Positions 30,491 to 54,680 of a stretch of DNA of 64,000 bases are shown here, one piece after another (position 1 is the first letter of the stretch; each line of letters starts with the position of its first letter). The stretch spans positions 109,575 through 173,574 of the forward strand of contig JABIJM010000002.1 of NCBI GenBank assembly GCA_018655525.1, read 5' to 3'. The notes beneath the pieces were generated by a model, which saw only the letters and a list, made by a program, of their open reading frames with translations, was not told the origin of the DNA and made no database searches. Source of the stretch: Candidatus Woesearchaeota archaeon (lineage in GTDB: Archaea; Nanobdellota; Nanobdellia; Woesearchaeales; GW2011-AR9). Made by a program: the position numbers and the translations under genes.

Positions 30491-30500
30491 TTTTTCCTCC

Positions 30501-31075: not shown

Positions 31076-31270
31076 ATGAATGGAACAGTAAAATTTTTTA
31101 ACGAGAGTAAAGGATTCGGCTTCATTCAATCAGAAGATGGCAAAGAGTTTTTTGTGCATCAAACTGGATTGAAAGAAGGAGTAAGAATCAGAGATAACGA
31201 CGCAGTAACCTTTGATGTAGAAGAAGGAGACCGTGGTCCAAAAGCAGTTAACGTTGAATTAGCAAATTAA
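31076..31270 (+). CDS. Cold-shock domain protein (CspA family)
   Basis: MNGTVKFFNESKGFGFIQSEDGKEFFVHQTGL carries the RNP1-like KGFGFI motif. The 64-aa length is typical of bacterial-type Csp. Confidence 0.85.
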   Translation: MNGTVKFFNESKGFGFIQSEDGKEFFVHQTGLKEGVRIRDNDAVTFDVEEGDRGPKAVNVELAN

Positions 31271-31365
31271 TAATAAGAATCATACTTAATTTATAATAAT
31301 TTCAGCTTAATTTTTTTCTTTTTTTTTTAATTTTTTAAATTCTGAAAAAATAATAATAAAAATAT

Positions 31366-31701
31366 TTAATCTTCAGAAGTTTCTTCATCTAGATAATGTT
31401 CATCAATCTCTTTATCTTCTTCATCATCGACTGTTTCTACTTTAATAGTCACAGTTCCAGATTTAATTGTTGCTTGACACGCTAATCGATGTGTTTCATC
31501 ACGATCTTCCATTTCTTCTTCTTTTGCTGTTAATGGACCTAAATTATCTTCTCCTTCTTCAATAATAATTTTACAAGCTCCGCAAACTCCTTTTTTACAT
31601 CCAAAAGGAACACCTAATTCTTCACAGGCTGCTCTAATGTTGTCGCCATCTTTAACTTCTTCTCGTTTTTCACCTAGAATGATATTTGCCATCATAATCA
31701 C
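31366..31701 (-). CDS. 2Fe-2S ferredoxin (plant-type) with acidic termini
   Basis: C-x4-C-x2-C ... C pattern (GCKKGVCGACKI ... RLACQ). Confidence 0.7.
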   Translation of the reverse strand: MIMMANIILGEKREEVKDGDNIRAACEELGVPFGCKKGVCGACKIIIEEGEDNLGPLTAKEEEMEDRDETHRLACQATIKSGTVTIKVETVDDEEDKEIDEHYLDEETSED

Positions 31702-31762
31702 CTCATCTATAGAATTAAGAGGTGTTAAAAGATATATAAACGTTGTGGAAAATTGGCAATAC

Positions 31763-32140
31763 TTAACTTTTAACCTTTAAACTTACAACTGTTTTGTCTT
31801 TAAAATTTAGTGGTGCTTCCTGCACATACTTCTTTCCATATCTAAGAGCAAGTTCTGCTTTATAGAATTCTTTTCCAAGATAAGCTGCATGTTCCATCCT
31901 AGAAACAAGTTTCTCACGGATTACGGTATGATAAAGATCCATAGCATTTTTTCCTGTAACCATTTTAGAGATAACATGTTTACCTGTAACGTAACCTGCT
32001 TCAATCAGTTTTTTCTTATGATTTACTTTGATTAAAAAATATCCTTTAGGATCTTGATGCCATTCTTTGATAGGGTTATGGTGTGCTTCAATGGTTTCTT
32101 TGATGTTTGTAACTTGTTTCACCCATGTATACTTTGCCAT
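31763..32140 (-). CDS. Hypothetical protein
   Basis: ORF only. Confidence 0.35.
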   Translation of the reverse strand: MAKYTWVKQVTNIKETIEAHHNPIKEWHQDPKGYFLIKVNHKKKLIEAGYVTGKHVISKMVTGKNAMDLYHTVIREKLVSRMEHAAYLGKEFYKAELALRYGKKYVQEAPLNFKDKTVVSLKVKS

Positions 32141-32238
32141 CTTGATTAAAAAACTATTTTCCTTTATAACTGTTTTGTAACATCTATTTTAAAAAATGTA
32201 CAAAAAGATTAATAAGTTCAAGGGCATTTCTAACTCAT

Positions 32239-33384
32239 ATGAAAAAAGAGATTATTGTTTTAAGTGATATTGAACTAGGCGCAGGAAATCTTACGGATGA
32301 TTTTATTAGCGATAAAACACTTGCAAAATTTATAAAATCATTAAAAGGACGTAATCATCCAGTTGATTTAATTTTAAATGGAGACATCATAGATTTTTTG
32401 AAATGTCCTTATATTCAAAACGAGAAATATTCTTATCCGCGGCATGTTTCTGAAGAAATTTCTTTGGTAAAATTACAAACAGTTTATGATGCTCATTCAT
32501 TAGTTTTTGATGCATTGAAAGAATTTGGAAGACCTGATAAAAACAAAATTTATTTTGTGATTGGAAATCACGATCATGATTTGTATTTTAAAGGCGTTCA
32601 AAAAGCAATCAAGCGATTGATTAACAAAAAGAAAGGTGTATATTTCCCATTACGTTATAAACAACATAGCGTATGGGTAGAACATGGTCATCAACATGAT
32701 TTCTTAAATAAAACAAATCATAAAAAACCGTTTGATTGGTATCTTGGAAAAAAAATATTGAATTACCCGTGGGTTTCTTTTGGTGTTATTAGTAGGGCTT
32801 TAATCATGAAGGAAGAACATCCTTTTATGGAACGGATAAAACCATACCCTTTATTATTCAAACATCACAAAGTTGTAATTAGAAAAATATCACGAGGTGC
32901 ATTAGAATATGCATTGAAAAGTTTTCTTTATTATCCTTTACGATTTTTTAGGGATCCAACATACCGTATGCCACGAGATTTCGTGATGGAATTTTATACG
33001 AGATTTAGAAATGGAAATTGGGATATTGAAGACATTACAGATAATTTTAAACGAAAGAAAAAAAATAAGATGAGGGACTATAGGCTATATGTTTTTGGTC
33101 ACACTCATGAAAAATTGATTGAAGAGAAAGATGGATGGGCAATCGCAATTCCCGATACATGGCGAGATGAATATACTATGGATCCAATGACAAAAGAGTT
33201 AATTCCTAAAACAAAGAAGTATGTCCAGGTATTTGTGAGTAATGATGATCAAATTGCATGGGAAATGCAAGAGATTAAAGTTAAACGAAAACCTCTTTTC
33301 TTTAATGATGTTATAAAGGAAGAGATTAAATACATTAAACTTGTTGCAAAGGATGAAGGATTTGTTTCTAGAGTTTTAAAGTAA
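32239..33384 (+). CDS. Calcineurin-like metallophosphoesterase
   Basis: Phosphoesterase motifs are present: LSDIELGAGN (D-x-H/G-like), LNGDIIDF, GNHDHD and a later GHTHE. Confidence 0.7.
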   Translation: MKKEIIVLSDIELGAGNLTDDFISDKTLAKFIKSLKGRNHPVDLILNGDIIDFLKCPYIQNEKYSYPRHVSEEISLVKLQTVYDAHSLVFDALKEFGRPDKNKIYFVIGNHDHDLYFKGVQKAIKRLINKKKGVYFPLRYKQHSVWVEHGHQHDFLNKTNHKKPFDWYLGKKILNYPWVSFGVISRALIMKEEHPFMERIKPYPLLFKHHKVVIRKISRGALEYALKSFLYYPLRFFRDPTYRMPRDFVMEFYTRFRNGNWDIEDITDNFKRKKKNKMRDYRLYVFGHTHEKLIEEKDGWAIAIPDTWRDEYTMDPMTKELIPKTKKYVQVFVSNDDQIAWEMQEIKVKRKPLFFNDVIKEEIKYIKLVAKDEGFVSRVLK

Positions 33385-33422
33385 TGTCAACTCTGTCTAG
33401 AAGGTTACAAAAATGTATACTA

Positions 33423-33445
33423 CGTGCCGGCACGATTATTTTTTC
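33423..33445 (+). terminator. Perfect 12-bp palindrome cgtgccggcacg followed by a T-run; candidate transcript-end signal for the phosphoesterase gene
   Basis: Read from the sequence. A GC-rich palindrome in an AT-rich genome, 39 nt after the stop, followed by ttatttttt. Confidence 0.35.
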
Positions 33446-33552
33446 TAGAAAAAGAAAAAATGTGCCTATTGCAGGTAGTATACAAAATAGAAATTTTCTG
33501 GACAGCACAGTAATGTCATAAACTTTATATATCATCAAGATAAAATTATGCT

Positions 33553-34161
33553 GTGAAAGAAAATTTAGAACAGAAAATTGATGAAAATCAAAATCATATT
33601 CTTATGGGGAAAGCATTAGCAGATTCTCTTAGAAATTCTATTGAACAAGTTCAGAAAGAGATTAAAAAATCTAAAAAACCGATTGATCAAAAATTAAAAA
33701 AGATTCTTAAAAAAGTTAAAATCAAAAAGAAAGAAGAAAAAGAAGTTAAAGTTGAAAGTGACGATGACATTTTAGAGATATCTAAGGATGATATTAAAGT
33801 AACATACGGAAACAAAGAAAATTTTGAAGGTATCTCTTATGCTGATTCTTCACCTGTAAGTTATTCAGATGTGATGTACGGTAATGATAAATCTCATTTC
33901 GGTTCTGAAGAGGATGGGTTCTATGAAGCACAAACAAAACAAGAGATGGAACTTGCTGAAACCATGAATGATGATGAAGCAGAAATTACAGTTAAAGATG
34001 TGCAATATGCAACTGTTATGGGTCAACAGGTGGATGTTGATATTAATGCACGAAAACGTTTTTCGACATGGTTAACTGCTGGTCAGAATAATCATATGTT
34101 GGCATACTTTGAAATTGTCCATGGAATTACACGAGATGTTGATTATAATGTTAAGAATTAA
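33553..34161 (+). CDS. Hypothetical protein (GTG start), Lys/Glu-rich N-terminal half
   Basis: ORF only. Confidence 0.35.
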   Translation: MKENLEQKIDENQNHILMGKALADSLRNSIEQVQKEIKKSKKPIDQKLKKILKKVKIKKKEEKEVKVESDDDILEISKDDIKVTYGNKENFEGISYADSSPVSYSDVMYGNDKSHFGSEEDGFYEAQTKQEMELAETMNDDEAEITVKDVQYATVMGQQVDVDINARKRFSTWLTAGQNNHMLAYFEIVHGITRDVDYNVKN

Positions 34162-34163
34162 TT

Positions 34164-34922
34164 CTATTTCCACATATCAACAATTTCTTCTTCAGAGAAA
34201 TGCATTTTACCAGGAATAATCAAACTATGTAGTGGTTTACCAAAATCTACTTCTTTCAATTGCTTCAAGGTTCCTGAAATAATTTTGAAATCACTGCATC
34301 CTAATCTTGCACAACCAATGGCAAATGTATCATCTGAAATCACATTCTCAGAAACTCGTGATTCAATATCTTCCATAACTTCAATTGCTTGTTTAACAGT
34401 CATAAATCGTTCCTGTTCAACTTTTATGTCTAATAACAACAAAGTGTGTGCACCGATCTTTTGATTCTGTTGTAGGATTCTATAAGGTGTTTCTAGTTGT
34501 GGGAAATCATCTAGGAAAGGAATGGATGTTGTTTTTCCGAATTTGTATAATTGTAATCCTGTTTGACCAATTGCAGTGAGAATTGAGGCATTGTGAATCA
34601 CATCTACTTTAACGCCTTCATCTTTTGCAATTTTAAATAATGCTGTATGTGTGGTTGCTGAGAATGGATCTCCAATTACAAGGAATGCAACATTTTCTGT
34701 TTTTGCTTGCGCAACAATTTTTTCCATACCTTGTTCAGATGTGTTTCTATCAGCTAATGTGATTTCTCTATCATAGAATTTTGCTAAATCATGGAATGAA
34801 CATTGTAGTAATGATGTATATCGTTCTAGGTAAACTTCATCACATGATTTGACTAGTTCTAATCCTTTGACTGTAATGTCTTCTGGTCCGTTCAATCCTA
34901 ATCCTATGATGTATAATGTCAT
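34164..34922 (-). CDS. dph5: Diphthine synthase (EF-2 diphthamide biosynthesis methyltransferase)
   Basis: MTLYIIGLGLNGPEDITVKGLELVKSCDEVYLERYTS is the tetrapyrrole-methylase-fold N-terminus typical of diphthine synthase. The length is 252 aa. Confidence 0.85.
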   Translation of the reverse strand: MTLYIIGLGLNGPEDITVKGLELVKSCDEVYLERYTSLLQCSFHDLAKFYDREITLADRNTSEQGMEKIVAQAKTENVAFLVIGDPFSATTHTALFKIAKDEGVKVDVIHNASILTAIGQTGLQLYKFGKTTSIPFLDDFPQLETPYRILQQNQKIGAHTLLLLDIKVEQERFMTVKQAIEVMEDIESRVSENVISDDTFAIGCARLGCSDFKIISGTLKQLKEVDFGKPLHSLIIPGKMHFSEEEIVDMWK

Positions 34923-35437
34923 TATTTAATCCCATACACAACGATTCGTGCATCCTTCATATCGTCAAACCCTACTTGAACAGATGAATCCCAGATAAAA
35001 ATGTTTCCTTCAGTAAGTTCTACAGGTACATGCATGCCATTATTCTTATATTCAAGAGTTGGTGTTCCTTGTAAAACTACGCATGCGGTTAACCCTTCTT
35101 TTGAATTTTGAATTTTTTCTAAAAAGATATTTGTTGAATCATATAATCTTATCTCTCCAATTCTTCCAGTTGATGCTCCATGCTCTTGATATAATCTTCG
35201 CATTGGTACGCTTGCAATTTCTTCTATAAGATCATAACAATCATTAATTCTTTCATACGTTCTTAGGTTACATATTCCATGATCATAAGAAACTTTTTTT
35301 GCAATAATTTCTCTCATCCAATCAATTCTATCTTCAAGATGAGACGTATTAATTCGTTGTGCTAATTGTGTTTCTTCTTCAGGTTCTACTAACCTTAAAT
35401 GTTGTTGTGGGTGTGGTAATATTCTTGCTAATGTCAT
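34922..35437 (-). CDS. Hypothetical cupin-like protein encoded between elp3 and dph5
   Basis: Its start and stop codons overlap both neighbours. The C-terminal beta-barrel-like segment has cupin-like composition. Family not recognised. Confidence 0.4.
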   Translation of the reverse strand: MTLARILPHPQQHLRLVEPEEETQLAQRINTSHLEDRIDWMREIIAKKVSYDHGICNLRTYERINDCYDLIEEIASVPMRRLYQEHGASTGRIGEIRLYDSTNIFLEKIQNSKEGLTACVVLQGTPTLEYKNNGMHVPVELTEGNIFIWDSSVQVGFDDMKDARIVVYGIK

Positions 35438-37451: not shown

Positions 37452-37532
37452 AACTAGAAAGTGACGTATTTATAAAGCTTCTTCTTAAAACACACAAAAT
37501 ACTTTTATAAGACTATACAAAATTCATTAAAT

Positions 37533-38504: not shown

Positions 38505-38596
38505 AATTTTCTCATTGAAACCTATCAAAATTTACATTTTGGACTTTCCTAACTTTGTACGGAAAGTTTATAAATGAACCCTTTCTCTACCCTCCT

Positions 38597-38887
38597 ATGG
38601 TTACTAGAATAGGTACAAAACAACGGAAAACACGGCATAAATTAAGCCAACCTTATAGAAAAAAAGGTAAAATTTCAATACGTCAGTATTTCCAAGAATT
38701 TGCAGTAGGAGATAAAGCAAACTTAAAAATACATCCTTCAGTACAAAAAGGACGATTTTTCCCACGATTTCATGGTTTAACAGGAAATATCACAGGAAAA
38801 ATGAAAGGTCAATGTTACGAAGTAATTATCAAAGATGGTGGAAAAACAAAAGCATTATTTATTCACCCAATTCACTTAAAAAAATAA
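38597..38887 (+). CDS. rpl21e: 50S ribosomal protein L21e
   Basis: RIGTKQRKTRHKLSQ...FAVGDKANLKIHPSVQKGRFFPRFHGLTGNITG matches the eL21 family. The start is taken at the internal Met; the six-frame ORF begins at 38555. Confidence 0.8.
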   Translation: MVTRIGTKQRKTRHKLSQPYRKKGKISIRQYFQEFAVGDKANLKIHPSVQKGRFFPRFHGLTGNITGKMKGQCYEVIIKDGGKTKALFIHPIHLKK

Positions 38888-38891
38888 AAAA

Positions 38892-39239
38892 ATGGCAAAC
38901 CCAATATTTGTGGAAGAGAACACATTATCTTTACAAGAGGTAAAGTCAATCCTAAACAAAGTAGCTAAAAGAGATACAGAATTAAATTATCGTTCAAACA
39001 AAGCAAAGGAATTCGTTGAAAACTTTGCTAATTCTTTAAATGAAAAACAAAAAGATGAGTTGCTTGAAAAACTCAAAGGTCTTGGTCTCACAAGGTTACG
39101 AGAAGAACATATGAAAAAAATCATTGACTTCCTTCCAACCACGGTTGATGACTTGAGATCTGTTCTTCAAGCATATCCATTAAGTATGCCGAAAAAAGAT
39201 CAAGAAGCGATCGTTGGCGCTGTGAAGGGATTCGCATAA
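38892..39239 (+). CDS. rpoF: DNA-directed RNA polymerase subunit F (Rpb4 homolog)
   Basis: A 115-aa helical protein immediately downstream of rpl21e, as in the conserved archaeal L21e-RpoF-DUF655 operon. Sequence similarity is weak, so the call rests mainly on synteny. Confidence 0.6.
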   Translation: MANPIFVEENTLSLQEVKSILNKVAKRDTELNYRSNKAKEFVENFANSLNEKQKDELLEKLKGLGLTRLREEHMKKIIDFLPTTVDDLRSVLQAYPLSMPKKDQEAIVGAVKGFA

Positions 39240-39305
39240 TTTTTCTTAAATTGCCTTCAAAAAGAGCAACTTTTATTAAGATAAAAAAAATACTACTAAT
39301 ATAAC

Positions 39306-39869
39306 ATGAATCAACCAACCGAAAAAATCATCAGAGAAGAGAACGCAATTGTCCTAGATTATCTGCCACATGGCTATTCTACAGATCAAGGAACGATGAA
39401 ACAGCCTATAGCACAAGGTCTTGGAGTTGGTCATTTAACATTATTAGAATTAATTCCTAAAAAAGAAGTTCATTTACAACCACATCAAGAGGTATACATT
39501 GGTGAAGGTAAAAGGGATGAAATTCATCACATTAAAGGTAAAATTGAACATGATAAACTTACAAGTACAGCTGAAAAAGAATTGAAACATGCAGTTGAAG
39601 CAGCTGTTGGTAAAGATGAATCACGATTTGTTGAATTCTTTAACAAAGCTGCACCGTTAAGTATGAGAATGCACCAGCTTGAATTACTTCCAGGATTAGG
39701 AAAGAAACACATGTGGGAAGTTATTAACGAACGTAAAGGTAAACCTTTCATAAGTTTTGAAGATTTGAAAGCACGTGTGAAATTATTACCAGATCCTAAA
39801 CAGATTGTTGTAAAAAGAATTATGTCTGAGATTCAAGGTAAAGAAAAGTATAACATTTTTGTTAAATAG
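39306..39869 (+). CDS. Conserved archaeal DUF655-family putative nucleic-acid-binding protein
   Basis: It takes the third position of the L21e-RpoF operon. It has an N-terminal OB/S1-like region and an HhH-like LLPGLGKKHMWEVI segment. Confidence 0.6.
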   Translation: MNQPTEKIIREENAIVLDYLPHGYSTDQGTMKQPIAQGLGVGHLTLLELIPKKEVHLQPHQEVYIGEGKRDEIHHIKGKIEHDKLTSTAEKELKHAVEAAVGKDESRFVEFFNKAAPLSMRMHQLELLPGLGKKHMWEVINERKGKPFISFEDLKARVKLLPDPKQIVVKRIMSEIQGKEKYNIFVK

Positions 39870-39870
39870 A

Positions 39871-41866: not shown

Positions 41867-43060
41867 TTAAAAATTGGTTAATTTTAATTGCGTTTTATTT
41901 TCTTTCAGAAGTTTACTTTCATCTAATAAAACATTTAGGTTAAATCCAAATTTATTTTTTACAAATTCTTTTGCGTAATCTAACATTAATTTCTCAGAAG
42001 CAAATCTAAGTGGCTTTGTGTTTGCAGATTTTCGCGCTGATTCCCTACATACCCATACACCTAATGGGACTTTATATTCATCTGTGATAAATCTAAGAGC
42101 AATACATCTATATTGTCGTTTATCTTTCTTCATTTTTTCTAGCACGGGTAATTGTGCTGCAAAATAGCCGCCTGCAGTTTCTTCAGGATATGTTTTTCGT
42201 CCACCATAGGATTCATGATCTGTAGAATAGGCATAGCCTTGCTTACTCCAAGGATTTACAGGATTTTTAAGATATGTTTCAAATAATTCATATCCCCAGA
42301 CTTCTGGATAATATAAAAGAAGATAATAATTCCCCCAATTTCCTCCAAAATGTAGTTGGAAATCTCCAACAGGATAATCTTTGACTTCTTTTGTAAGTTG
42401 TTTACAAATCGTAGAATCTGCAGCTGTGATACTCCATCGTGTTGGTACAAGTTTACGATTTTTTTTTATTCCTAAATTTCCTACAGAAATAAGTTTGCTT
42501 AAGACACCTTCCTCAAATCCTTTTTTGTAAAGTTTTAACATACCACCAGCTGCTTTAAGATCTGTATCAAACACAACTTTTTCAACTTTATGATCTACTT
42601 TTGTATTTGATGTTATACGAGCTCTCTGAACACCTGAAGCTGGACCCCAGGGTGTAACTTCAGATTCTCCTTTTAAGTTTAAAGAAGGTGCTTTTTTGAG
42701 CGTGACATCTAATTCTGCTGGACGTTTTGCCATTCCAACTTCTTGAATGATATTCAACATATTTCCACCAGAATGTAAATCCTTAACTTTCCATTTCTGT
42801 CTGCTATTTACAAGCCCATATCTCATATTTGCAATCTGATTCATTTTGAAGTTTCCTGAACTCCAAAGTTTCGGAGAATCATAGTAAGAAGTATCTCCAG
42901 AGAATTGTGGGGATAAGAATCCGATGTTTACGTGCGGATATCCAAACCTTCCTATGAATGGAGCTGGTGCAGATCCTTGGAATTGTTGTTTGAAATTCTT
43001 TTTAACTTTAAGTTTAGGAGTCTGTTCAATATCTTTGTATTTGATACGATGGATATTCAT
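41867..43060 (-). CDS. Conserved hypothetical protein (possibly archaeal Nre-like DUF650/DUF651 family)
   Basis: A 397-aa ORF. The family assignment is tentative and based on size and composition only. Confidence 0.35.
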   Translation of the reverse strand: MNIHRIKYKDIEQTPKLKVKKNFKQQFQGSAPAPFIGRFGYPHVNIGFLSPQFSGDTSYYDSPKLWSSGNFKMNQIANMRYGLVNSRQKWKVKDLHSGGNMLNIIQEVGMAKRPAELDVTLKKAPSLNLKGESEVTPWGPASGVQRARITSNTKVDHKVEKVVFDTDLKAAGGMLKLYKKGFEEGVLSKLISVGNLGIKKNRKLVPTRWSITAADSTICKQLTKEVKDYPVGDFQLHFGGNWGNYYLLLYYPEVWGYELFETYLKNPVNPWSKQGYAYSTDHESYGGRKTYPEETAGGYFAAQLPVLEKMKKDKRQYRCIALRFITDEYKVPLGVWVCRESARKSANTKPLRFASEKLMLDYAKEFVKNKFGFNLNVLLDESKLLKENKTQLKLTNF

Positions 43061-43143: not shown

Positions 43144-43896
43144 TTAATATTGAATAAGACTATCTTGATATGCTCTCGCTTCTTTAACAGCTGACATAAA
43201 CTCTCTTACTCTTCCTCTATCAACAGGATTAGATGTATTGTTTCCAACTTTCAAACAAGTTCCAACAATAGCACCATCAGTAATACATAATTGGTCATAT
43301 GCGTTTTCTGGAGTTAAACCTGCCCCAATAACAAGAGGATGCTCACCCGTTATTTCACGAAATCTTCTAATTTTATCAAATGGAGTTTCTTTTCCGGTTC
43401 CTGGGCCTGTTACTACAATTGCTTCTGCTCTTTCCGTTCCAAGCCTAACATCTGCTTCTAAATTAGATCCGTCAAGTGGACGATAATATTTTGGCCATAC
43501 GCCACCAAGAACCATTACATTTGGAAATCTTTCTTTTTGTGAAGCATATGCAGAAAAATTTATTTCACCAGAACGATATTTTCCAGAAACATGGTCTAAT
43601 TGAATAAAATCAGCGCCATATTGTGCAGCTAATTGAAATGCTTGATTAAATTCATTAGGTAAAACATTGATTCCAATAACAACATTTGTATCAAGTCTTG
43701 ATGTTGCTTGCAATGTTTGAATGACATCATCAACAGAACCATGATAATTTTCAACAATGGCACCGTCAATACCTTCTTCTTCAAATAAAGTTAATTCGTC
43801 TAATGCTCTCTTTACAGGTTCATTTCCTGCCAAATGAATCATTCCTAAAATTGGAATTTTTCCGAAAACATTTTTATATCTATTATTTAATTGCAT
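43144..43896 (-). CDS. BtpA/SgcQ-family TIM-barrel protein
   Basis: ILGMIHLAGN...GIDGAIVENYHG is characteristic of the BtpA family. The length is 250 aa. Confidence 0.7.
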   Translation of the reverse strand: MQLNNRYKNVFGKIPILGMIHLAGNEPVKRALDELTLFEEEGIDGAIVENYHGSVDDVIQTLQATSRLDTNVVIGINVLPNEFNQAFQLAAQYGADFIQLDHVSGKYRSGEINFSAYASQKERFPNVMVLGGVWPKYYRPLDGSNLEADVRLGTERAEAIVVTGPGTGKETPFDKIRRFREITGEHPLVIGAGLTPENAYDQLCITDGAIVGTCLKVGNNTSNPVDRGRVREFMSAVKEARAYQDSLIQY

Positions 43897-44017
43897 AATA
43901 TCTTTGAAGAGTAATGATTAATAAACTTAATGAAATTTAGGATATCAATCTAAAAATAAATAACTTTATACTTATTTCACACACACCTTTATAACTAACC
44001 TGTATATTTGAACCTAT

Positions 44018-45340
44018 ATGACAGATTTCAAAGATTTAAATTTAAAACCAGAACTAGAAAAAGCATTATCTAAATTACATTATGTAACTCCTACTCCAAT
44101 CCAATTACAAGCAATTCCAGGATTAATGAAAGGAAATGATTTAATTGGTATTGCGCAAACAGGTACTGGTAAGACAGCAGCATTCACACTTCCAATTCTT
44201 CATCAAATGAAAGAAGAATATCCAAGGAAAATTAAAACATTAGTAATTGCACCAACAAGAGAACTCGCAGCGCAAATCGGCGAAAGTTTTGCGAAGTATG
44301 GAGAATTTCTTAAGTTTAAACATACCACTATTTTTGGTGGTGTGAAACAAGGAAGACAAGTTGAAGCGTTAAAAAAAGGTGTTGACATTCTTGTTGCAAC
44401 ACCAGGTAGATTAATGGATTTATTAAATCAAGGTAAATTATCTTTGAAAGAAGTTGAGTTCTTTGTACTTGATGAAGCTGATAGAATGCTTGACATGGGC
44501 TTTATTCATGATATCAGAAAAGTCATTGCGAAATTACCACATAGAAGACAATCATTATTTTTTTCAGCAACAATGTCACCTCAGGTTAATACACTTGCAC
44601 GGAGCCTTCTAAGAGATCCTATTCACGTAGAGGTTACGCCACAAGCAACAACTGTTGAACGTATCACTCAAGAAGTTTATTTTGTTGATCAGAAGTCTAA
44701 AGATAAATTATTACTTGAACTTTTAGAAGAAGATCATCTTACAAGTATTTTAGTATTTACGAGAACGAAACATAAAGCCAATAAGGTTGCTGTTTTTCTA
44801 AATAAAAATAAAATTCCAGCAGAAGCAATCCATGGAAATAAATCACAAGGTGCAAGAACGAGAGCAATTAAAAATTTTAAAAGTGGAGAAGTTAAAGTTT
44901 TAGTAGCTACAGATATTGCAGCTAGAGGAATTGACATCGATAATATTTCACATGTAATTAATTATGAACTTCCTAATGAAGCAGAAAGTTATGTTCACAG
45001 AATTGGAAGAACCGCGCGAGCTGGAACTGATGGCGCTGCATTTTCATTTTGCTCAGCTGAGGAACGAGATTATCTTCGTAGCATTGTAAAGTTAATTAAG
45101 CAAGAGCTTGAAGTAATCAAACATAAATATCATTCTGAGAAGGCTGAATATGCTGTTGGTGAAGCAGCAAGACCTCCAAAGAAACAAAGGAGAGGACAGC
45201 GTAATAGAAGTTCTAAACCACGAAATAATAATGAGAATAAAGGTGGCAGTGGAAATGGAAGTAAAAGACCATTCACAAAAACCTATAAGGGCAAAAAGAA
45301 AAGAGGCGGGAATCAACGTCGTCAATCTACACGTAGGTAG
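44018..45340 (+). CDS. DEAD-box ATP-dependent RNA helicase with basic C-terminal tail
   Basis: Q-motif, AQTGTGKT (motif I), PTRELA, DEAD, SAT and HRIGRTAR motifs. The tail is Arg/Lys/Gly-rich. Confidence 0.85.
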   Translation: MTDFKDLNLKPELEKALSKLHYVTPTPIQLQAIPGLMKGNDLIGIAQTGTGKTAAFTLPILHQMKEEYPRKIKTLVIAPTRELAAQIGESFAKYGEFLKFKHTTIFGGVKQGRQVEALKKGVDILVATPGRLMDLLNQGKLSLKEVEFFVLDEADRMLDMGFIHDIRKVIAKLPHRRQSLFFSATMSPQVNTLARSLLRDPIHVEVTPQATTVERITQEVYFVDQKSKDKLLLELLEEDHLTSILVFTRTKHKANKVAVFLNKNKIPAEAIHGNKSQGARTRAIKNFKSGEVKVLVATDIAARGIDIDNISHVINYELPNEAESYVHRIGRTARAGTDGAAFSFCSAEERDYLRSIVKLIKQELEVIKHKYHSEKAEYAVGEAARPPKKQRRGQRNRSSKPRNNNENKGGSGNGSKRPFTKTYKGKKKRGGNQRRQSTRR

Positions 45341-45414: not shown

Positions 45415-46998
45415 TTACCTTCTTTTTACAGGTTTCCGTTTTCCGTAAGCACCGGGGCTTCGTTTAGAAAAACTTCCTTTATTAGAATCGCCTCTATGAG
45501 ATGGTTTTTTTGAGCGGTCACGGCTTGATCCTTCTTTACTTCCTGAATCTCTACGTCCAAAAGATCTTCCTGTATCTCGGGATCTTCCTCTGCCACGTGT
45601 GTCTCTGTCACTTAAACCACGATCATTAGATTTTCTACGGTTACCACGAAAACCTCCTCTACGATCGCCTCTATCGGAACCACCTGAAACTTTTTTCAGA
45701 GGTTGATATTTCTTTTCATCTAATACTCCTCTAAATGCTTCTTTTAATAATGCGCTTACGATTGCTTTTGGATCATGGTTTGCGATTAAATCTTCTGCAA
45801 AGCCTTCATATTTTTTAGATTTTCCAGCTTCAATTAATGAATGAACTTTTGTAATCATTTTTGCTTTACGTGCTTCAACAATTAATTCAGCTGAAGGAAT
45901 TTCTCTTTTTTCTATTACACGGTTTGTGATTCTTTCAACAAACTTCAATTTTCGTTTATCTGAAGGTGTTAATAATGTGATTGCAATACCTTTCTTACCA
46001 GCTCGTGCTGTTCTTCCGATTCTATGTGTATAAGATTCAGGACTTTGAGGCAATGAAAAGTTTACAACATGAGTTAAATCATTAACATCAATTCCTCGTG
46101 CTGCTACATCAGTTGCAACTAAAATTGTAATTTGTTTATTTCTTAATTGTAATAAGATTTTTTCACGTTGTGGTTGTGAAATGTCTCCATGAAGTGCTGC
46201 TGCTCTGTAATCTGAATGTACTAGTTGATGTGTAACAGAATCTACATCTGCTTTTGTATTACAAAAGATGATTCCATAGAAATCTTCATTCATATCAATA
46301 ACACGTCTTACTACTTGATATCTATCGCGTGCCATTACACTATAATAAAATTCTTCAATTTGAAGAGTTTCTTGTTTTCGTTCTAATTTTATATGAACAG
46401 GATCACGCATGAATTTCTTTGCAATACCAATAATAGCACGAGGCATGGTTGCAGAGAATAAGATCATTTTTTTTCCTTTAGGTGTATTGCTAAGAATGGT
46501 TTCAATATCTTCAATGAAACCCATATTCAACATTTCATCTGCTTCATCTAATACTGCAAATTTTACGTTACTAAGGTCTAATGCTCTTCGTTTGATTAAG
46601 TCAAGTGTTCTTCCTGGTGTTCCTACAATAACTTGAACACCTCGTTTGATTGCACTTAATTGTTCTCTGATTGAAGATCCACCATATACTGCAAGTGAAA
46701 ATACTTTTTTATCTCCTCGTAAGGATTCAAATTCCTTTGCAACTTGCATTGCTAATTCACGTGTAGGAGCTAAGATTATTGCTTGAACTTTTTTAGAAGT
46801 TGTGTCAACTTGTTCAATAATTGGAAGTGCAAATGATGCTGTTTTTCCTGAACCTGTTTGAGATTCACCAATCACATCTTTACCTTTTAATAATAAAGGA
46901 ATTGTTTTTTCTTGAATCTCTGTAGCAGTAGTATAACCTTTCTTTTCTAGTGCTTTTAGTATGGTACTTGATAAACCTAAATCTTTAAAATCTGTCAT
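45415..46998 (-). CDS. DEAD-box ATP-dependent RNA helicase (CshA/DeaD-like) with RG/RS-rich C-terminal tail
   Basis: ESQTGSGKT, PTRELA, DEAD, SAT and HRIGRTARAG motifs. The C-terminal ~90 aa is RGG/RD/RS-rich low complexity. Confidence 0.85.
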   Translation of the reverse strand: MTDFKDLGLSSTILKALEKKGYTTATEIQEKTIPLLLKGKDVIGESQTGSGKTASFALPIIEQVDTTSKKVQAIILAPTRELAMQVAKEFESLRGDKKVFSLAVYGGSSIREQLSAIKRGVQVIVGTPGRTLDLIKRRALDLSNVKFAVLDEADEMLNMGFIEDIETILSNTPKGKKMILFSATMPRAIIGIAKKFMRDPVHIKLERKQETLQIEEFYYSVMARDRYQVVRRVIDMNEDFYGIIFCNTKADVDSVTHQLVHSDYRAAALHGDISQPQREKILLQLRNKQITILVATDVAARGIDVNDLTHVVNFSLPQSPESYTHRIGRTARAGKKGIAITLLTPSDKRKLKFVERITNRVIEKREIPSAELIVEARKAKMITKVHSLIEAGKSKKYEGFAEDLIANHDPKAIVSALLKEAFRGVLDEKKYQPLKKVSGGSDRGDRRGGFRGNRRKSNDRGLSDRDTRGRGRSRDTGRSFGRRDSGSKEGSSRDRSKKPSHRGDSNKGSFSKRSPGAYGKRKPVKRR

Positions 46999-47102
46999 AA
47001 TATAGAATTTAGGAGGGGAGTTTATAAACCTTCTGATTATTTATGACTATTTGGTGGGAAAAGATAGAATGTTTTTTAAAGAAACAGTTTAAATAGCGTA
47101 TT

Positions 47103-47781: not shown

Positions 47782-47823
47782 TATTTTAAATGAAAAAAAG
47801 AAGTTTCTTTATAAAGATGAGGT

Positions 47824-49161: not shown

Positions 49162-49237
49162 AGAAGGTTATTTTGGATGTTTCTATTAAAATGTATAGGT
49201 TGAATTTGTAAAAGTAAGAAACGTTAGTTTTGATATT

Positions 49238-50089
49238 TTATTCGCTATTAACTAATTGATCTAAAAGATGAGATCTTCTTTTACTTTCTTCTAAAGCTTT
49301 TTTAGCTTCTTTTAATTCTTTTTGTTTCTTTAATTTTTCTGAAGAAGCTTTATCTTGATCTTTTTTATCTTCATGGTCAATAAGATAATCTCTCAACTTA
49401 TTCTGATAAACAAATACCATCTTTTGGTCTTCAAGATTTAATGGAGAATCAAGTTTGATTACACGATCAACAAGGACTTTATCAAATTCACGAAGTTTAA
49501 AATGAAGTGTATTATTTTGAAAATCACGTTCTAAAAATACATGCCCATATGGTTTTTGACTTTTATAGGAAATTCTAATTACACCATCTTTTGTATATGA
49601 TGCTCCTTCAATATTTCTATTTATAGGCATTGCAAGAGCATACTGCGCATGTGGAATTCTCCCAAAAAATGTCTTAGGAGTATAATTTATTAAACATGGC
49701 TCTGCTTCACCTAATCTTCCTTTAATTGATAGATGTGGAACTGAATCATCAACAGTTTCACAATGTTCAATTCCGAATTCTTCCCAACAACTTTCATGGG
49801 ATCCATATGTAAGTAGTTCGTCAACTGGAACACCATTTTCTTTTAATAAATTTCTACAAAGGTTTATTGAATTAAATTTAGATGCATCCATATTGTTTCC
49901 TTGAGAATCCTTCATAAATTGTTCTAAATAATCACATTCTAACTTTGTTGAAGCTCGTTCACGATCTTCACAATGAGAGGGGATATTTCGTGTAGGCTGT
50001 TTTGATGTAGTACCATAACTACATCCCATAGCTCCAACTGTAAGACCTGCCGCAAGAATTGTGTGTGCTAATAATTTTTTTAATCCCAT
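49238..50089 (-). CDS. Secreted/lipoprotein-like protein with KE-rich coiled-coil C-terminus
   Basis: Signal peptide with a Cys after the hydrophobic core (AAGLTVGAMGCS). The C-terminal tail is KDQDKASSEKLKKQKELKEAKKALEESKRR. Confidence 0.4.
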   Translation of the reverse strand: MGLKKLLAHTILAAGLTVGAMGCSYGTTSKQPTRNIPSHCEDRERASTKLECDYLEQFMKDSQGNNMDASKFNSINLCRNLLKENGVPVDELLTYGSHESCWEEFGIEHCETVDDSVPHLSIKGRLGEAEPCLINYTPKTFFGRIPHAQYALAMPINRNIEGASYTKDGVIRISYKSQKPYGHVFLERDFQNNTLHFKLREFDKVLVDRVIKLDSPLNLEDQKMVFVYQNKLRDYLIDHEDKKDQDKASSEKLKKQKELKEAKKALEESKRRSHLLDQLVNSE

Positions 50090-50149
50090 TAAACCTATAA
50101 ATAGACACCTATTTATAAAGTTTTTCCTGAGGAGTGGTGATTCCTCATT

Positions 50150-51280
50150 TTGACAAAAAACTTAATAAGAGGTTATTCTTCACACAAAAACATGATTTAC
50201 AAAAATATCTTGAAACCGATCTTTTTCAAACAAGATCCTGAAAAGATTCATGAATCTATGACAAAGATTGGTTCTATTTTAGGAAAATTTATAGTTACAA
50301 GATTATTAGTTTCATCTATTCTTAATTATAAACATTCTTCTCTTACGCAAACAGTTGATGGAATCACATACCAAAATCCAATTGGATTAGCTGCTGGATT
50401 TGATAAGGATGCACATTTGACACAAATACTTCCATCTATTGGATTTGGATTTGAAGAGATAGGATCTGTGACAGCACTTCCTTGTAAAGGGAATCCTAAA
50501 CCACGATTATGGCGATTACCAAAATATAAATCATTAGTTGTATATTATGGATTGAAAAATAAAGGATGTGAAGCAATTGCACAAAAACTTCAAAATAAAA
50601 AGTTTGATTTTCCATTAGGTATTAGTATTGCAAAAACGAATTGTAAAGAAACGGTTGATATAGATACTGCGATTGAAGATTATTATACTTCTCTTGTAAG
50701 ATTAGAACCCTTTGCAGATTATATTACAATAAACATCAGTTGTCCAAATGCGTTTGGAGGTCAGCCGTTTACATCTGCTGAACTTTTAGATGCATTATTA
50801 GAGAAACTTGATACATTTGAAAGTAACAAGCCTCGTTACATAAAAGTATCACCAGATCTATCAATAGATCAAGTTGATGATTTGATTTCGGTTTCAGAGA
50901 ATCATAACATTCAAGGTTTTATTATTAGTAATCTTTTGAAGAAACGTGAAAACTCAGGTATTCCTTTAGAAGAATTTTCTAAAGTTGGACATGGAGGATT
51001 GAGTGGGAAACCAGTTCAAAAACATGCAAACAAAATGATCTCTTATGTCCATAAAAAAACAAAAGGTAGGTTTACAATCATTGGCGTTGGTGGTGTTTTC
51101 ACAGGTAAAGATGCATATGCAAAAATAAAAGCTGGTGCTTCTCTGATTCAACTGGTGACAGGATTAGTGTATGGTGGTCCTACAACGATTAAAAGAATTA
51201 ATCAAGAATTAGTTGTTCTTTTGGAGAAAGATGGTTTTTCTAATATTTCTGAAGCTGTTGGCTCTAATCATAAAAAATAA
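50150..51280 (+). CDS. pyrD: Dihydroorotate dehydrogenase, class-2-like (quinone-type architecture)
   Basis: N-terminal extension, then NPIGLAAGFDKD, GFGFEEIGSVT, NISCPN, GGLSGKP and IIGVGGV motifs. These are co-linear with E. coli PyrD. Unusually, the active-site position reads SCPN (Cys) rather than the SSPN of class 2. Confidence 0.85.
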   Translation: MTKNLIRGYSSHKNMIYKNILKPIFFKQDPEKIHESMTKIGSILGKFIVTRLLVSSILNYKHSSLTQTVDGITYQNPIGLAAGFDKDAHLTQILPSIGFGFEEIGSVTALPCKGNPKPRLWRLPKYKSLVVYYGLKNKGCEAIAQKLQNKKFDFPLGISIAKTNCKETVDIDTAIEDYYTSLVRLEPFADYITINISCPNAFGGQPFTSAELLDALLEKLDTFESNKPRYIKVSPDLSIDQVDDLISVSENHNIQGFIISNLLKKRENSGIPLEEFSKVGHGGLSGKPVQKHANKMISYVHKKTKGRFTIIGVGGVFTGKDAYAKIKAGASLIQLVTGLVYGGPTTIKRINQELVVLLEKDGFSNISEAVGSNHKK

Positions 51281-51298
51281 AAAAATAAAAATAAAAAA

Positions 51299-52021
51299 TT
51301 AGTTTTCTGCTTGACCAACATCAGCTGGTTTCCCTTTATCTTCAGGAACAACATCTTCTGGTTTCTCTTGAGCTCCTGCATCCTCAGGTTTTTTCTCATC
51401 TGCTTTTGCCATTTTATCCTTGGTTTCTTCCTCAGAAAGAATTTTAATGGTTGGTTTTAATTTATACTCGCCATTACCTGTTGCAATCACAGATTGTTGT
51501 GCATCAAAATCTAATGTCAAAGTTGTTGTTTCACCTGCAAGAATATCAAATCCTTTTACTAACTTTATTTTTCCAGACGGAACTTCTAAGTTATGCTCTT
51601 CACCATCAATTGTAACTTTAGCTTCCTTAAGAGTTAATCGTACTTGTGTATATTTTCCTGTATCTAACTCTGCTTGTCCTAATACATCAACAACATTAAC
51701 TAATTCCATTAAATCAAAAGTTTGTTCTTCTGCAACAACTGTAAACCATCCTGCTTTAGTTTCTTCTTCTACTTCTTCCGTAGTTTCTGTTTCTTCAGAC
51801 GTTTCAGGCACCTCAGGTTCTACAGCATCTTCTACTTCTTCATTATCTTCGCCAGCTACATGAACTTGAACTTCAGAAATTGTTACTAAAGCTTTCTCAA
51901 TGTTTAAATCCGCAGGAGCATCGGTGATTTGCATCACTAAAGTTCCTTTCTCTTCAACTGGTGTACAACCTATAATAAGAAATAAAACCAAGATTGCCGC
52001 CAAAATACTTACTATTCTCAT
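51299..52021 (-). CDS. Acidic secreted lipoprotein (DUF4382-like)
   Basis: Signal plus lipobox-like IIGCT. MQITDAP resembles the DUF4382 N-terminus. The central region is Glu/Thr/Val-rich and acidic. Confidence 0.4.
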   Translation of the reverse strand: MRIVSILAAILVLFLIIGCTPVEEKGTLVMQITDAPADLNIEKALVTISEVQVHVAGEDNEEVEDAVEPEVPETSEETETTEEVEEETKAGWFTVVAEEQTFDLMELVNVVDVLGQAELDTGKYTQVRLTLKEAKVTIDGEEHNLEVPSGKIKLVKGFDILAGETTTLTLDFDAQQSVIATGNGEYKLKPTIKILSEEETKDKMAKADEKKPEDAGAQEKPEDVVPEDKGKPADVGQAEN

Positions 52022-52129
52022 ACTAACACCTCATTTATTTTTAATTGAAGATTATTTTATACTTAATAAAGGTTACTTTAAAAGATAGATTATGGAACTA
52101 TTTAAATACTTTAATATTAAAATATTTTT

Positions 52130-52825
52130 ATGTTTACAAAAATCAAAGAAGACCTTCTAAAACAACAACGTCCTTCAAAGGCTGAGTTTCATTTACGTTT
52201 TTTTAAATGTGGAAAAGGGGAGTATGGTGAAGGGGATCAATTCCTTGGCGTTTCGGTTCCAGATCAAAGAAAAATCGCAAAGAAATATTTCAAAGAAGTT
52301 TCTTATGAAGATGTTCAAAGATTATTAGATTCAAAAATTCATGAACATCGGTTGACTGGTCTTTTCTTATTAAATTATAAGTTTGAAAAGTTTCCAGAAG
52401 AAAGAAAAAAGATTTATGAGTTATGGATTAAAAATACAAAAAATATTAACAACTGGGACTTGATAGATTGTTCTGCACCAAATGTTGTTGGTGAATATCT
52501 ATTAGATAAAGATAAATCCTTATTATATGAATTTGCAAAATCCAGTAATTTATGGAAGAAAAGAATTTCAATATTATCTACATTTAGATTCATTAAAAAT
52601 AATCGATTTAATGATACGATCAAAATTGCAGAAATTCTTGTAAATGATAAACATGATTTGATTCATAAAGCGGTAGGATGGATGTTACGAGAAGTTGGTA
52701 AGAAGGATCAAGCTGTTGAAGAAGCATTTCTTAAGAGATATCACAAAACAATGCCACGTACGATGTTGCGATATGCGATTGAGAGATTTAGTCAAGAGAA
52801 GCGAGAATACTACATGAAGAAATGA
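52130..52825 (+). CDS. DNA alkylation repair protein (AlkD/AlkC-like HEAT-repeat glycosylase family)
   Basis: The HEAT-like repeat architecture and 231-aa length are typical of the AlkD family (FHLRFFKCGKGEYGEGDQFLGVSVP...WDLID...HKAVGWMLREVGK). Confidence 0.65.
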   Translation: MFTKIKEDLLKQQRPSKAEFHLRFFKCGKGEYGEGDQFLGVSVPDQRKIAKKYFKEVSYEDVQRLLDSKIHEHRLTGLFLLNYKFEKFPEERKKIYELWIKNTKNINNWDLIDCSAPNVVGEYLLDKDKSLLYEFAKSSNLWKKRISILSTFRFIKNNRFNDTIKIAEILVNDKHDLIHKAVGWMLREVGKKDQAVEEAFLKRYHKTMPRTMLRYAIERFSQEKREYYMKK

Positions 52826-52830
52826 AATAT

Positions 52831-53184
52831 TTATATCCTATACCCTTCAAAAAATCTATCACTATTTTGCCCATAAGTTGCTCTAACTTTAAATATTCCA
52901 GATGGACTTTCAAAAACCTTTCCTTCTTTTTCAAATTCAATTAATGCCTTTTCAGCTACAAATCCTAAGTCATAATTTGTACCATCATTCACTAGCCAAT
53001 CCGGATTCTCTTCTTTTGGGTGTCCGTTTTGTAATAAACAAGTTGTTACAGAATCATCTAAATATGCTTCCACATTAGTTGAACACAAAGGAACCCGATT
53101 ATTTTGGAAATATCCTTCTAAAATGCCTTTACAACTCTTTATTTGTTCTCGTAATTTTTCTCCTGTTAGTTCTGTAGTTACCAT
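52831..53184 (-). CDS. Hypothetical protein
   Basis: ORF only. Confidence 0.3.
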   Translation of the reverse strand: MVTTELTGEKLREQIKSCKGILEGYFQNNRVPLCSTNVEAYLDDSVTTCLLQNGHPKEENPDWLVNDGTNYDLGFVAEKALIEFEKEGKVFESPSGIFKVRATYGQNSDRFFEGYRI

Positions 53185-53396
53185 AAACCATAAATGAATA
53201 TTATTAATATTTAAGGATTTAGATTATTAAAAAGACAATAGAAATTATTGAAAGATTATCTCCGATACCTTTATAAACACCCCCTCTAAATATATGATAT
53301 TAATTGGATCGGCAGAAACAGAGAGCCACCATACTTATTCTGTTTCACTTTACAAAATTTAGAAGTAATTAAGCGAACTCCAATGGAGAAAATAAT

Positions 53397-54680
53397 ATGA
53401 AACGATTTACAGATTTAGGTGTAAAACCTGAGATAGTACGAGGATTAGAAGATGATAAGATTTACAATCCTACCAACATTCAAGAACAATCAATTCCTGC
53501 AGCACATGAAGGAAAAGACGTCATTGGAATGAGCCGAACTGGTTCAGGAAAAACAGCAGCATTCGGAGTCCCTGTATTAGAAAAAGTACAGAAGTCACAA
53601 GGATTACAAGCAGTTATCCTTACACCAACACGAGAATTAGCAGTTCAAATTTCACGTCAGATGCAAAAATGGGCAAAGTATACAGAATTAAAAATTTGTA
53701 CAGTCTATGGTGGAGTAGCATATGAACCACAAATTGAAAATTTAAAAATTTCTGAGATTATGGTTGGAACACCAGGAAGAGTTTTAGATATCATGGAAAA
53801 GGGATTCTTAAAACTTCATCAGATTAATACCTTTGTATTAGATGAAGCTGATAAGATGGTTGAGATGGGTTTCATTGAAGATATTGAAAGAATTATACAA
53901 CCAATGCCTAAAGATAGACAAATCATTTTATTCGGTGCAACTCTTTCAAGTGAAATTGATCATATTAAAAACACACACATGAATGATCCAATCACCGCAG
54001 AATCTTCATTACATGTTGAGAAGGATTTATTGAAACAATATTACTATGAAATTTCACATAGGGAAAAGTTTTCTTTATTAGTTCATTTACTTAAGAAAGA
54101 AGAAACAGATAGAGTTATGATTTTCTGTAGTTCACGTTCAACTGTTGAATTAGTCTACAAAAATTTACGACATCAAAATATCAAAGCAGAAATGATCCAT
54201 GGAAAATTATCTCAAAATAAACGTCAAAGAGTAATTGATGGATTTAACAAAGGGAGACCTAAAATTTTAATCGCATCAGCAGTTGCTGCAAGAGGATTAG
54301 ATATCCAAGATGTGACACATGTATTCAATTATGACCTTTCACAAGATCCTCAAGAATACATCCACAGAGTTGGACGAACTGCAAGAGCAGGTGCAGAAGG
54401 AGTAGCATTCACATTATTAAGTGAACGTGATCACGAAACATTTGATCAGATTATGCGAAGGTACAACATTCCAGCTGTATTGCTTCCAAAAGAGAGTTTT
54501 CCACCTTTAAGATTTGACACTGGTGTTAAGAAACGATTTGGTGACAGACAGAACCATCAGCATCGTGGAAGTAGTAGCGGAAGTTACAGAGGAAACAACA
54601 GTTCAAGTGGACGAAGCAGCTTTGGGCGATCACAAGCACCTGCAAAGAATAAGCTAGCTTCTTCTGGTTGGAATGCGTAA
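53397..54680 (+). CDS. DEAD-box ATP-dependent RNA helicase with Ser/Gly/Arg-rich tail
   Basis: MSRTGSGKT, PTRELA, DEAD, GAT (SAT variant) and HRVGRTARAG motifs. Confidence 0.85.
   Translation: MKRFTDLGVKPEIVRGLEDDKIYNPTNIQEQSIPAAHEGKDVIGMSRTGSGKTAAFGVPVLEKVQKSQGLQAVILTPTRELAVQISRQMQKWAKYTELKICTVYGGVAYEPQIENLKISEIMVGTPGRVLDIMEKGFLKLHQINTFVLDEADKMVEMGFIEDIERIIQPMPKDRQIILFGATLSSEIDHIKNTHMNDPITAESSLHVEKDLLKQYYYEISHREKFSLLVHLLKKEETDRVMIFCSSRSTVELVYKNLRHQNIKAEMIHGKLSQNKRQRVIDGFNKGRPKILIASAVAARGLDIQDVTHVFNYDLSQDPQEYIHRVGRTARAGAEGVAFTLLSERDHETFDQIMRRYNIPAVLLPKESFPPLRFDTGVKKRFGDRQNHQHRGSSSGSYRGNNSSSGRSSFGRSQAPAKNKLASSGWNA

Follow-up and report, generated by a model that had tools for sequence, protein, structure and literature searches.

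The question raised by this locus is whether a cold-shock protein (Csp) and three DEAD-box RNA helicases, encoded close together in an archaeal contig, form a bacterial-style RNA-remodelling toolkit imported into this genome, possibly for life in the cold, or belong to the ordinary gene content of the lineage. The stretch analysed, hereafter the window, comprises 64,000 nucleotides of contig JABIJM010000002.1 of a Candidatus Woesearchaeota archaeon. An earlier note, made from the letters alone, had pointed out the four genes and favoured acquisition from bacteria or low-temperature RNA chaperoning. The observation is confirmed overall, and that interpretation is partly supported. The best explanation as a whole, to which we give a probability of about 0.78, is that the window comes from the genome of a Candidatus Woesearchaeota (DPANN; GTDB Nanoarchaeota) living in the sea or another aquatic habitat and carries the lineage's standard RNA-remodelling set, rather than a recent import. 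This set consists of the Csp, an RhlE-type helicase (hel1), a CshA/DeaD/MjDEAD-type helicase (hel2) and a lineage-specific helicase with a GAT motif III (hel3). The four gene families are established in Woesearchaeota/Nanoarchaeota and are already annotated there; they are thus an ordinary lineage feature.

Open reading frames (ORFs) for all four genes were found at the coordinates proposed earlier. The csp gene (31076..31270, plus strand) encodes a 64-residue single cold-shock domain protein, that is, an OB-fold chaperone of RNA and single-stranded DNA. The helicase genes encode proteins of 440 residues (hel1; 44018..45340, plus strand), 527 residues (hel2; 45415..46998) and 427 residues (hel3; 53397..54680, plus strand). 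One point needs correcting: hel2 is encoded by the minus strand, so that it and hel1 are convergent, with 74 bp between them. From csp to hel3 the distance is 23.6 kb, within the 25 kb announced, and the helicase trio fits inside 10.7 kb. Each helicase matches the Pfam DEAD (PF00270; 169-175 bits) and Helicase_C (PF00271; 109-120 bits) domains above threshold, with E-values between 1e-32 and 1e-52, and has complete motifs Q, I, Ia, Ib, II (DEAD), III, V and VI, which establishes all three as DEAD-box helicases. The basic or RG-rich character ascribed to their C-terminal tails was also borne out: the isoelectric points are 12.0, 11.7 and 11.6 for hel1, hel2 and hel3, the Arg plus Lys contents are 34%, 34% and 18%, and the RG/GR dipeptides number 2, 11 and 4, respectively.

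Because their pairwise identity is just 38%, hel1, hel2 and hel3 are old paralogs and not recent duplicates. For a genome of ~1 Mb with only three DEAD-box genes, the clustering formula n(L/G)^(n-1) gives ~3e-4 for three helicases in 10.7 kb; the weight of this value, drawn from one window, is reduced by the choice of the window for this very trait and by a gene order that relatives do not keep.

The Csp matches the Pfam cold-shock domain (PF00313) with 70.4 bits for a cutoff of 27 and contains RNP1 (KGFGFI, residues 12-17) and RNP2 (FFVH, residues 25-28), as expected for the canonical protein that it had been taken for. Its best NCBIfam match is CspE, with 62 bits for a cutoff of 120, and it scores below the equivalog cutoffs of all the Csp models (CspA, CspE, CspC and CspD; 115-152 bits). 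The best PDB match is Listeria CspLA (62 bits), to which the identity is ~56% by manual alignment count; identities to the bacterial Csps on the fetched loci are 51-55%. On these similarities, the protein is of the bacterial CspA/CspE type: it shares the 64-residue single cold-shock domain and both RNP motifs with bacterial CspA/CspE/CspB (Listeria CspLA, 2LXJ; B. subtilis CspB, 1CSP). However, it reads KFFN, without the Trp of the bacterial KWFN, two of its loops are 1-2 residues shorter, and it sits in a tight Woesearchaeota/Nanoarchaeota clade with at least 75% identity. The assertion that Csp proteins are rare in archaea holds outside certain mesophilic lineages but not within them, since a survey preprint (bioRxiv 10.1101/2025.06.02.657341) counted CspA-like proteins in 114 of 234 archaeal genomes; most of these belong to Halobacteriales, and all are mesophiles. 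On the parallel assertion that most archaea encode few or no DEAD-box helicases, no literature statement of archaeal DEAD-box counts was found, and this claim rests on general knowledge only.

The helicases were placed in a neighbour-joining tree of 92 sequences and 373 columns, with 200 bootstraps. The scans of GTDB and metagenome contigs return only sequences sharing exact 8-mers with the query, and the bacterial sequences of the tree are thus pre-selected. In this tree, hel1 falls within an RhlE-like split with 100% bootstrap and, inside it, in a clade with orthologs from five low-GC metagenome contigs (L089-L093; 97% bootstrap; 68-77% identity). The name Nanoarchaeota archaeon is attached to a protein in the homolog cluster of the L093 ortholog. 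These orthologs are followed, at 55-62% identity, by bacterial RhlE proteins (Flavitalea, Saprospiraceae, a Bacteroidota metagenome-assembled genome (MAG) and high-GC contigs) and one further DPANN-like 'archaeon'. The best NCBIfam models for hel1 are RhlE2 (NF053710; 495 bits, cutoff 925) and RhlE (NF007882; 485 bits, cutoff 743), with scores below both cutoffs; against the CshA model (NF053631) it reaches 424 bits for a cutoff of 646. The PDB search placed it much farther from archaeal MjDEAD (236 bits) than from CshA, DDX17 and Hera. On this evidence, hel1 is classified as RhlE-like, not as an RhlE equivalog. With the RhlE-type helicases of E. coli and Pseudomonas it shares the best model match, a short basic C-terminal extension (here 65 residues rich in K, R, N and G) and the RhlE side of the 100% split; it differs from them by its scores below the equivalog cutoffs, by its separate clade with Nanoarchaeota contigs and by its distance to the nearest bacteria.

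The layout of hel2 consists of the helicase core, a CshA-like dimerisation-domain region (residues ~365-419) and a 102-residue RG/RS-rich tail, and the resemblance to CshA noted earlier is upheld in this respect. CshA (NF053631) is its best NCBIfam model (515 bits), below the cutoff of 646; the E. coli DeaD/CsdA model (NF008642) gives 379 bits for a cutoff of 989. Residues 1-419 align with residues 1-420 of Geobacillus CshA (5IVL) with 395 bits, and residues 365-419 with 366-420 of the same structure, while Pfam DeaD_dimer is matched weakly (19.7 bits, cutoff 23). No DbpA-type C-terminal domain was found among the Pfam matches of hel2. The protein probably dimerises through its C-terminal domain, as CshA does. 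Like the Bacillus/Geobacillus degradosome helicase CshA, which acts with RNase Y in bacteria, hel2 has a core, a region that aligns with the dimerisation domain and then a basic disordered tail. Unlike CshA, hel2 is archaeal, scores below the equivalog cutoff, bears a 102-residue tail rich in RG/RS and has a core about as near to MjDEAD. Indeed, MjDEAD (MJ0669; 1HV8) is the second-best PDB match both for hel2 (369 bits over 362 residues) and for hel3 (281 bits); in contrast to hel2, it is a bare core of 367 residues without dimerisation domain or tail. In the tree, the hel2 family has 100% bootstrap inside a CshA/DeaD-like group (97.5%) and is not specifically grouped with a pair from Methanosarcinales (6%). 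In aligned columns, hel2 is at most 55% identical to bacteria and at most 53% to Methanosarcinales, and is equidistant from the two.

Two contigs with hel2 homologs deserve mention on their own account. The nearest GTDB homolog (71%) is on L007 (CAYOOY010000005.1), labelled 'uncultured Methanosarcinales archaeon', which has no synteny with the window and also encodes a long-form RelA/SpoT, an OmpA-family protein, RsmB/F and Sua5. The presence of RelA/SpoT and OmpA, together with the grouping of the L007 helicase with Woesearchaeota (100% bootstrap), makes the taxonomic label or the binning of this contig look doubtful. On L170 (5708..15033), a hel2 ortholog (74%) stands between an Lhr-type helicase (937 residues; DEAD_assoc/WHD_Lhr) and a Ski2-like helicase with DSHCT (639 residues), which makes a cluster of three RNA/DNA helicases.

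The third helicase, hel3, has a 67-residue tail rich in S, G and R, and CshA as its best NCBIfam model (402 bits, below the cutoff of 646). Its family forms a long separate branch with 100% bootstrap and is 37-39% identical to all other sequences of the tree. In hel3, motif III (residue 180) reads GAT and not SAT. The GAT form is found in 119 of the 120 hel3-family proteins, whereas SAT is kept in 118 of 120 hel2-family and 146 of 150 RhlE-like sequences. Motif III is reported to connect the binding of ATP with that of RNA at high affinity (Banroques et al. 2010, cited in PMC8301817), and the conserved change from Ser to Gly may therefore tune this coupling in hel3.

Overall, the description of the set as bacterial-style fits the Csp, of CspA/CspE type, and the RhlE-type hel1. 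It does not fit hel2, which is equally near Methanosarcinales, nor hel3, whose named clade members are all Woesearchaeota, Nanoarchaeota or 'archaeon'.

How widely the set is carried by relatives was read from the top 120 homolog clusters each for Csp, hel2 and hel3. For Csp, these clusters are 75-94% identical and all the named ones are Woesearchaeota or Nanoarchaeota, including a 1.0-Mb B3_Woes contig. For hel2, they are 49-84% identical, with Woesearchaeota, Nanoarchaeota or 'archaeon' as the only names. For hel3, they are 54-66% identical, apart from its own cluster (100%) and one at 90%, and the names are Nanoarchaeota, Woesearchaeota, Nanoarchaeia or 'archaeon'. The same families being carried by relatives, an outcome which the earlier note itself had named as pointing to a lineage feature, the set is read here as such a feature. 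Consistently, the guanine-plus-cytosine (GC) content of the four genes, their GC at third codon positions and their codon usage are within the range of the window.

These data bear directly on the possibility that an island of bacterial RNA-metabolism genes was recently transferred into this genome. Besides the bacterial type of Csp and hel1 and the bacterial RhlE proteins, including those of Bacteroidota (Flavitalea, Saprospiraceae), that are the nearest relatives of hel1 outside DPANN (55-62%), one could invoke the genes just downstream of hel3. There, a TaqI-like restriction endonuclease gene (plus strand) and an N4/N6 DNA methyltransferase gene (minus strand) converge with a 62-bp overlap directly 3' of hel3 (54752..56240), and an XerA recombinase gene follows (57031..57831). 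Yet identity to bacterial proteins never exceeds 62%, compared with 68-94% for DPANN orthologs; neither composition nor codon usage departs from that of the window; archaeal core genes alternate with the four; the helicases are three different old paralogs, not a cassette; and XerA scores above the archaeal equivalog cutoff (262.8 bits versus 220), consistent with a chromosomal dimer-resolution recombinase. In addition, no mobile element was seen flanking the genes. Recent horizontal transfer is therefore essentially refuted by composition and ortholog distribution, and we regard acquisition by this particular genome as very improbable. Since Csp and hel1 are of bacterial type, the most economical inference is rather that these two came from bacteria in ancient times, no later than the base of the lineage.

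The archaeal surroundings of the four genes were established by Pfam and NCBIfam scans, which found archaeal markers to the left of, between and to the right of them. These include the S13-S4-S11-RpoD-L18e-L13-S9 operon (16690..20241), a fused PriS/PriL primase in a single ORF of 483 residues (20403..21854, minus strand; PriS-like at residues 119-253, PriL-like at 292-452), RpoL, the L21e-RpoF-DUF655 group (38555..39869) and Nre (41867..43060). Elp3 is also present among the archaeal genes, as is a TP_methylase-family gene that we read as diphthine synthase, and the XerA gene mentioned above is the marker on the right. A BtpA-family gene (Pfam BtpA; 43144..43896, minus strand) is divergent from hel1.

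That the window might be a bacterial/archaeal assembly chimera had been raised as what would overturn the original observation. The bacterial flavour of Csp, of the RhlE-type helicase and of a YkuD-type L,D-transpeptidase domain protein (11500..12288, plus strand; 54 bits), a peptidoglycan-type enzyme of bacteria, is all that could be held in its favour. Against this, at least six independent ENA assemblies show the order hel3, hel2, hel1, BtpA, Nre, L21e, Elp3. They were made with different assemblers, as seen from SPAdes-style NODE names, MEGAHIT-style k141 names and scaffolds, and one of the contigs spans 253.6 kb and includes csp. The GC content is uniform along the window (0.29-0.36), and the archaeal markers stand on both sides of the four genes and between them. 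The independent assemblies and interleaved markers rule out a chimera, to which we assign a next to negligible probability. An identical hel2 protein occurs on 13 contigs, and NCBI lists all four proteins, under consecutive accessions, for four MAGs that bear the name Candidatus Woesearchaeota archaeon. Candidatus Woesearchaeota is a phylum within Nanobdellati, the DPANN group, in the NCBI taxonomy.

Around the YkuD gene (68..16332), large ORFs of 780, 1063, 916 and 444 residues have no Pfam match, and a further ORF has 1679 residues. Divergent from csp, a compact cluster on the minus strand (29314..30881) encodes a Fur-family regulator, a 1-Cys/2-Cys peroxiredoxin and an Fe/Mn superoxide dismutase, which suggests oxygen exposure. 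A free-standing LAGLIDADG-domain ORF of 276 residues (28497..29327, plus strand) overlaps the 3' end of the superoxide dismutase gene by 14 bp. On the other side, csp is followed by genes for a 2Fe-2S ferredoxin and a PterinBD-DUF4346 protein.

Promoter-like elements point to the individual expression of the four genes. A TATA-box-like element, TTTATAAA, is located ~125 nt 5' of the csp ATG (30952..30959, plus strand), and an AGGAG Shine-Dalgarno-like site lies 8 nt before the start (31063..31067, plus strand); related csp loci have GGAGG-like sites at the corresponding position. The same TTTATAAA is found ~127 nt 5' of the hel3 ATG (53270..53277, plus strand), with a GGAG site at 53385..53388, and 30 nt 5' of the hel2 ATG (47021..47028, minus strand). 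For hel1, a putative TATA-like element reads TTTATAA, also 30 nt 5' of the ATG (43988..43994, plus strand). As a TATA-like element precedes each of them, the four genes look like separate transcription units. The 30-nt spacing before the ATGs of hel1 and hel2 suggests that their mRNAs are leaderless. In the cases of csp and hel3, TATA-like elements ~125 nt upstream and GGAG-type sites 8-9 nt before the start would define leaders of ~95 nt (~95-100 nt for hel3). A shared regulatory motif was considered and rejected, the sole shared 8-mer being the generic TATA-like TTTATAAA in front of three of the four genes.

The leaders are relevant to the temperature question. E. coli CspA and CsdA, as well as Methanococcoides burtonii DeaD, are cold-induced, and the set could in principle have been retained or expanded for cold water, with its genes induced in the same way. 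Apart from these family precedents, several homologs come from marine or Tara samples, and the predicted leaders of csp and hel3 fold more stably than shuffled sequences (z scores of -3.0 and -2.25), which is reminiscent of cspA/deaD leaders. However, in an alignment of eight csp loci (the window and seven related ones), only the Shine-Dalgarno-like site and the start region are kept, with a mean column identity of 44%. Being unconserved in the seven related loci, the csp leader structure is given no weight. An apparent conserved block upstream of csp in three of the related loci (L182-L184) turned out to be a short zinc-ribbon ORF, described below, that the window lacks. A search of the whole window against Rfam gave no match at the gathering score of any family, the cspA thermoregulator among them. 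The same gene families are found in Woesearchaeota of many habitats, and cold-shock proteins rank among the ten most expressed Woesearchaeota genes in the metatranscriptome of Lake Dziani Dzaha, Mayotte (PMC11606122). Such high expression speaks for a housekeeping role in RNA chaperoning and against one specific to the cold. Hence, nothing ties the gene set to low temperature; cold adaptation is not indicated, and the cold-related function first proposed is in our view unlikely.

The gene order in relatives is the only unexpected result. We compared six csp-centred loci from other Woesearchaeota contigs, in which the archaeal genes around csp encode Rpr2, an ATP-dependent DNA ligase, deoxyhypusine synthase, diphthine synthase and TrmB. 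A DEAD-box gene directly adjoins csp in three of them (L181, 8372..10198; L182, 6439..10198; L183, 8666..10195). The helicases concerned are 51-63% identical to one another, keep SAT at motif III and have hel3 as their nearest match in the window (42-45%). On L093 (1679..3233), a locus that came via hel1, 194 nt separate csp from the GAT-type hel3 ortholog (60%) that follows it, and a hel1 ortholog lies 7 kb beyond. A hel1-like helicase lies two genes from csp on L087. Finally, the order on L181 is DEAD, csp, BtpA, and its BtpA is 62% identical (61.9%, tblastn) to the one flanking hel1 in the window; the position of the latter may be a trace of a rearranged DEAD-csp-BtpA neighbourhood.

Such arrangements could reflect a conserved Csp-helicase module, in which the Csp would hold RNA single-stranded after a hel3-type helicase has opened it, the genes being ancestrally adjacent and, in the window, rearranged but still within ~22 kb. 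In B. subtilis, CspB has been suggested to work with CshA/CshB in this manner. The protein classes of that precedent, and of the cold-induced DeaD of M. burtonii, occur together here as well, and their genes are adjacent in some Woesearchaeota. The neighbours of csp on L181-L183, L093 and L087 and the shared BtpA speak for the module, all the more as the chance of finding a DEAD-box gene within 3 kb of csp is ~2% per genome by our own estimate (~4 DEAD-box genes in ~1 Mb). Nevertheless, no DEAD-box gene occurs within 10 kb of csp in the other three of the six csp-centred loci (B3_Woes locus L184, a 697-kb JGI contig and L185), and L181 and L182 are syntenic, hence not independent. In the window itself, 13-22 kb separate csp from the helicases, and a promoter-like element of its own precedes it. 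Nor do hel1 and hel2 stay together in relatives: the convergent pair, considered as a possible conserved unit, is not kept on L169 and L170, where hel2 is 70-74% identical. A conserved module thus seems possible but rather doubtful. From this small and partly non-independent sample, we read the csp/hel3-type linkage as recurrent, non-universal and loosened in the window. At most, the closeness of the four genes there is what remains, in looser form, of a csp/hel3-type neighbourhood.

An extended version of this idea is more tentative still. The Woesearchaeota/Nanoarchaeota may have their own DEAD-box subfamily, of the hel3 type and with a large subclade having an invariant GAT, that is devoted to working with a Csp of bacterial type and high expression. 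The genes would have been ancestrally adjacent, sometimes together with a zinc-ribbon ORF, and the resulting lineage-specific RNA-chaperone module would compensate for the limited set of RNA-processing genes in such small genomes.

Several other small or divergent genes were observed at these loci. An uncalled ORF of 40-44 residues with a CxxC...CxxC zinc ribbon lies directly 5' of csp in three divergent Woesearchaeota (L182, 9804..9965; L183, 9861..9986; L184, 9829..9996; all plus strand); its consensus is YRIVKYCRLCxxRYLVNKGESKxxYCxxC, without any NCBIfam match. Upstream of csp on L093 (1394..1666, plus strand), an RGG-rich stretch is combined with a CxxC-x17-CxxC domain (TIGR04272; 67.7 bits, cutoff 36). 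On L182, the csp-adjacent helicase is followed by a protein of 153 residues with an N-terminal cold-shock domain and an acidic repeat tail rich in E, A and P. A second helicase, from a further short DEAD-box-like family, is encoded 7 kb from csp on L181 (17358..18527, minus strand) and L182 (16831..17964, minus strand). Members of this family have 377-389 residues, are 30-33% identical to hel1-hel3, give no match to the canonical DE[AVC]D pattern and have no counterpart in the window.

Some observations weigh against our conclusion that the window carries the standard set of its lineage, in addition to the three csp loci without a nearby helicase. Taxon names are attached to only ~10-20% of the matches, and the unnamed ones could include other lineages. 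The distribution was established per gene family, which falls short of proving universal carriage. From the 92-sequence neighbour-joining tree, with its pre-selected bacterial entries, the deep origin of each family, bacterial or archaeal, can be read only tentatively. Lastly, the source may be cold water, as the sample tag 'HAWL17' could, at a guess, stand for the Saanich Inlet data set, and a cold-related role is therefore conceivable.

The families to which the four proteins belong suggest how the set would work. The RNP1/RNP2 face on the OB-fold of the Csp would bind single-stranded RNA and passively prevent or melt secondary structure. In the helicases, ATP binding would clamp the RNA, short duplexes would be locally unwound without translocation, and hydrolysis would release the RNA. 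Their disordered basic or RG-rich tails may act as non-specific tethers to large RNAs, for instance precursors of rRNA and structured mRNAs. The set could thereby contribute to ribosome assembly, mRNA turnover and the translation of structured messages, with an expression that is probably constitutive and not cold-specific.

The main value of this analysis is that a false lead is averted: the locus is neither contamination or a chimera nor a cold-adaptation island. For the biology of the lineage, it reveals a fairly rich equipment for RNA remodelling in genome-reduced DPANN archaea: they retain a Csp and no fewer than three old DEAD-box paralogs, to which some relatives add a fourth family. 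Of these, the Csp and the RhlE-like helicase are of bacterial type and would have been fixed early, which fits the extensive ancient bacterial gene flow known into DPANN. The points worth following up are modest and limited to the recurrent adjacency of csp with hel3-type genes and the clade of hel3 with its GAT motif III; both are possible experimental handles on RNA metabolism in uncultured DPANN.

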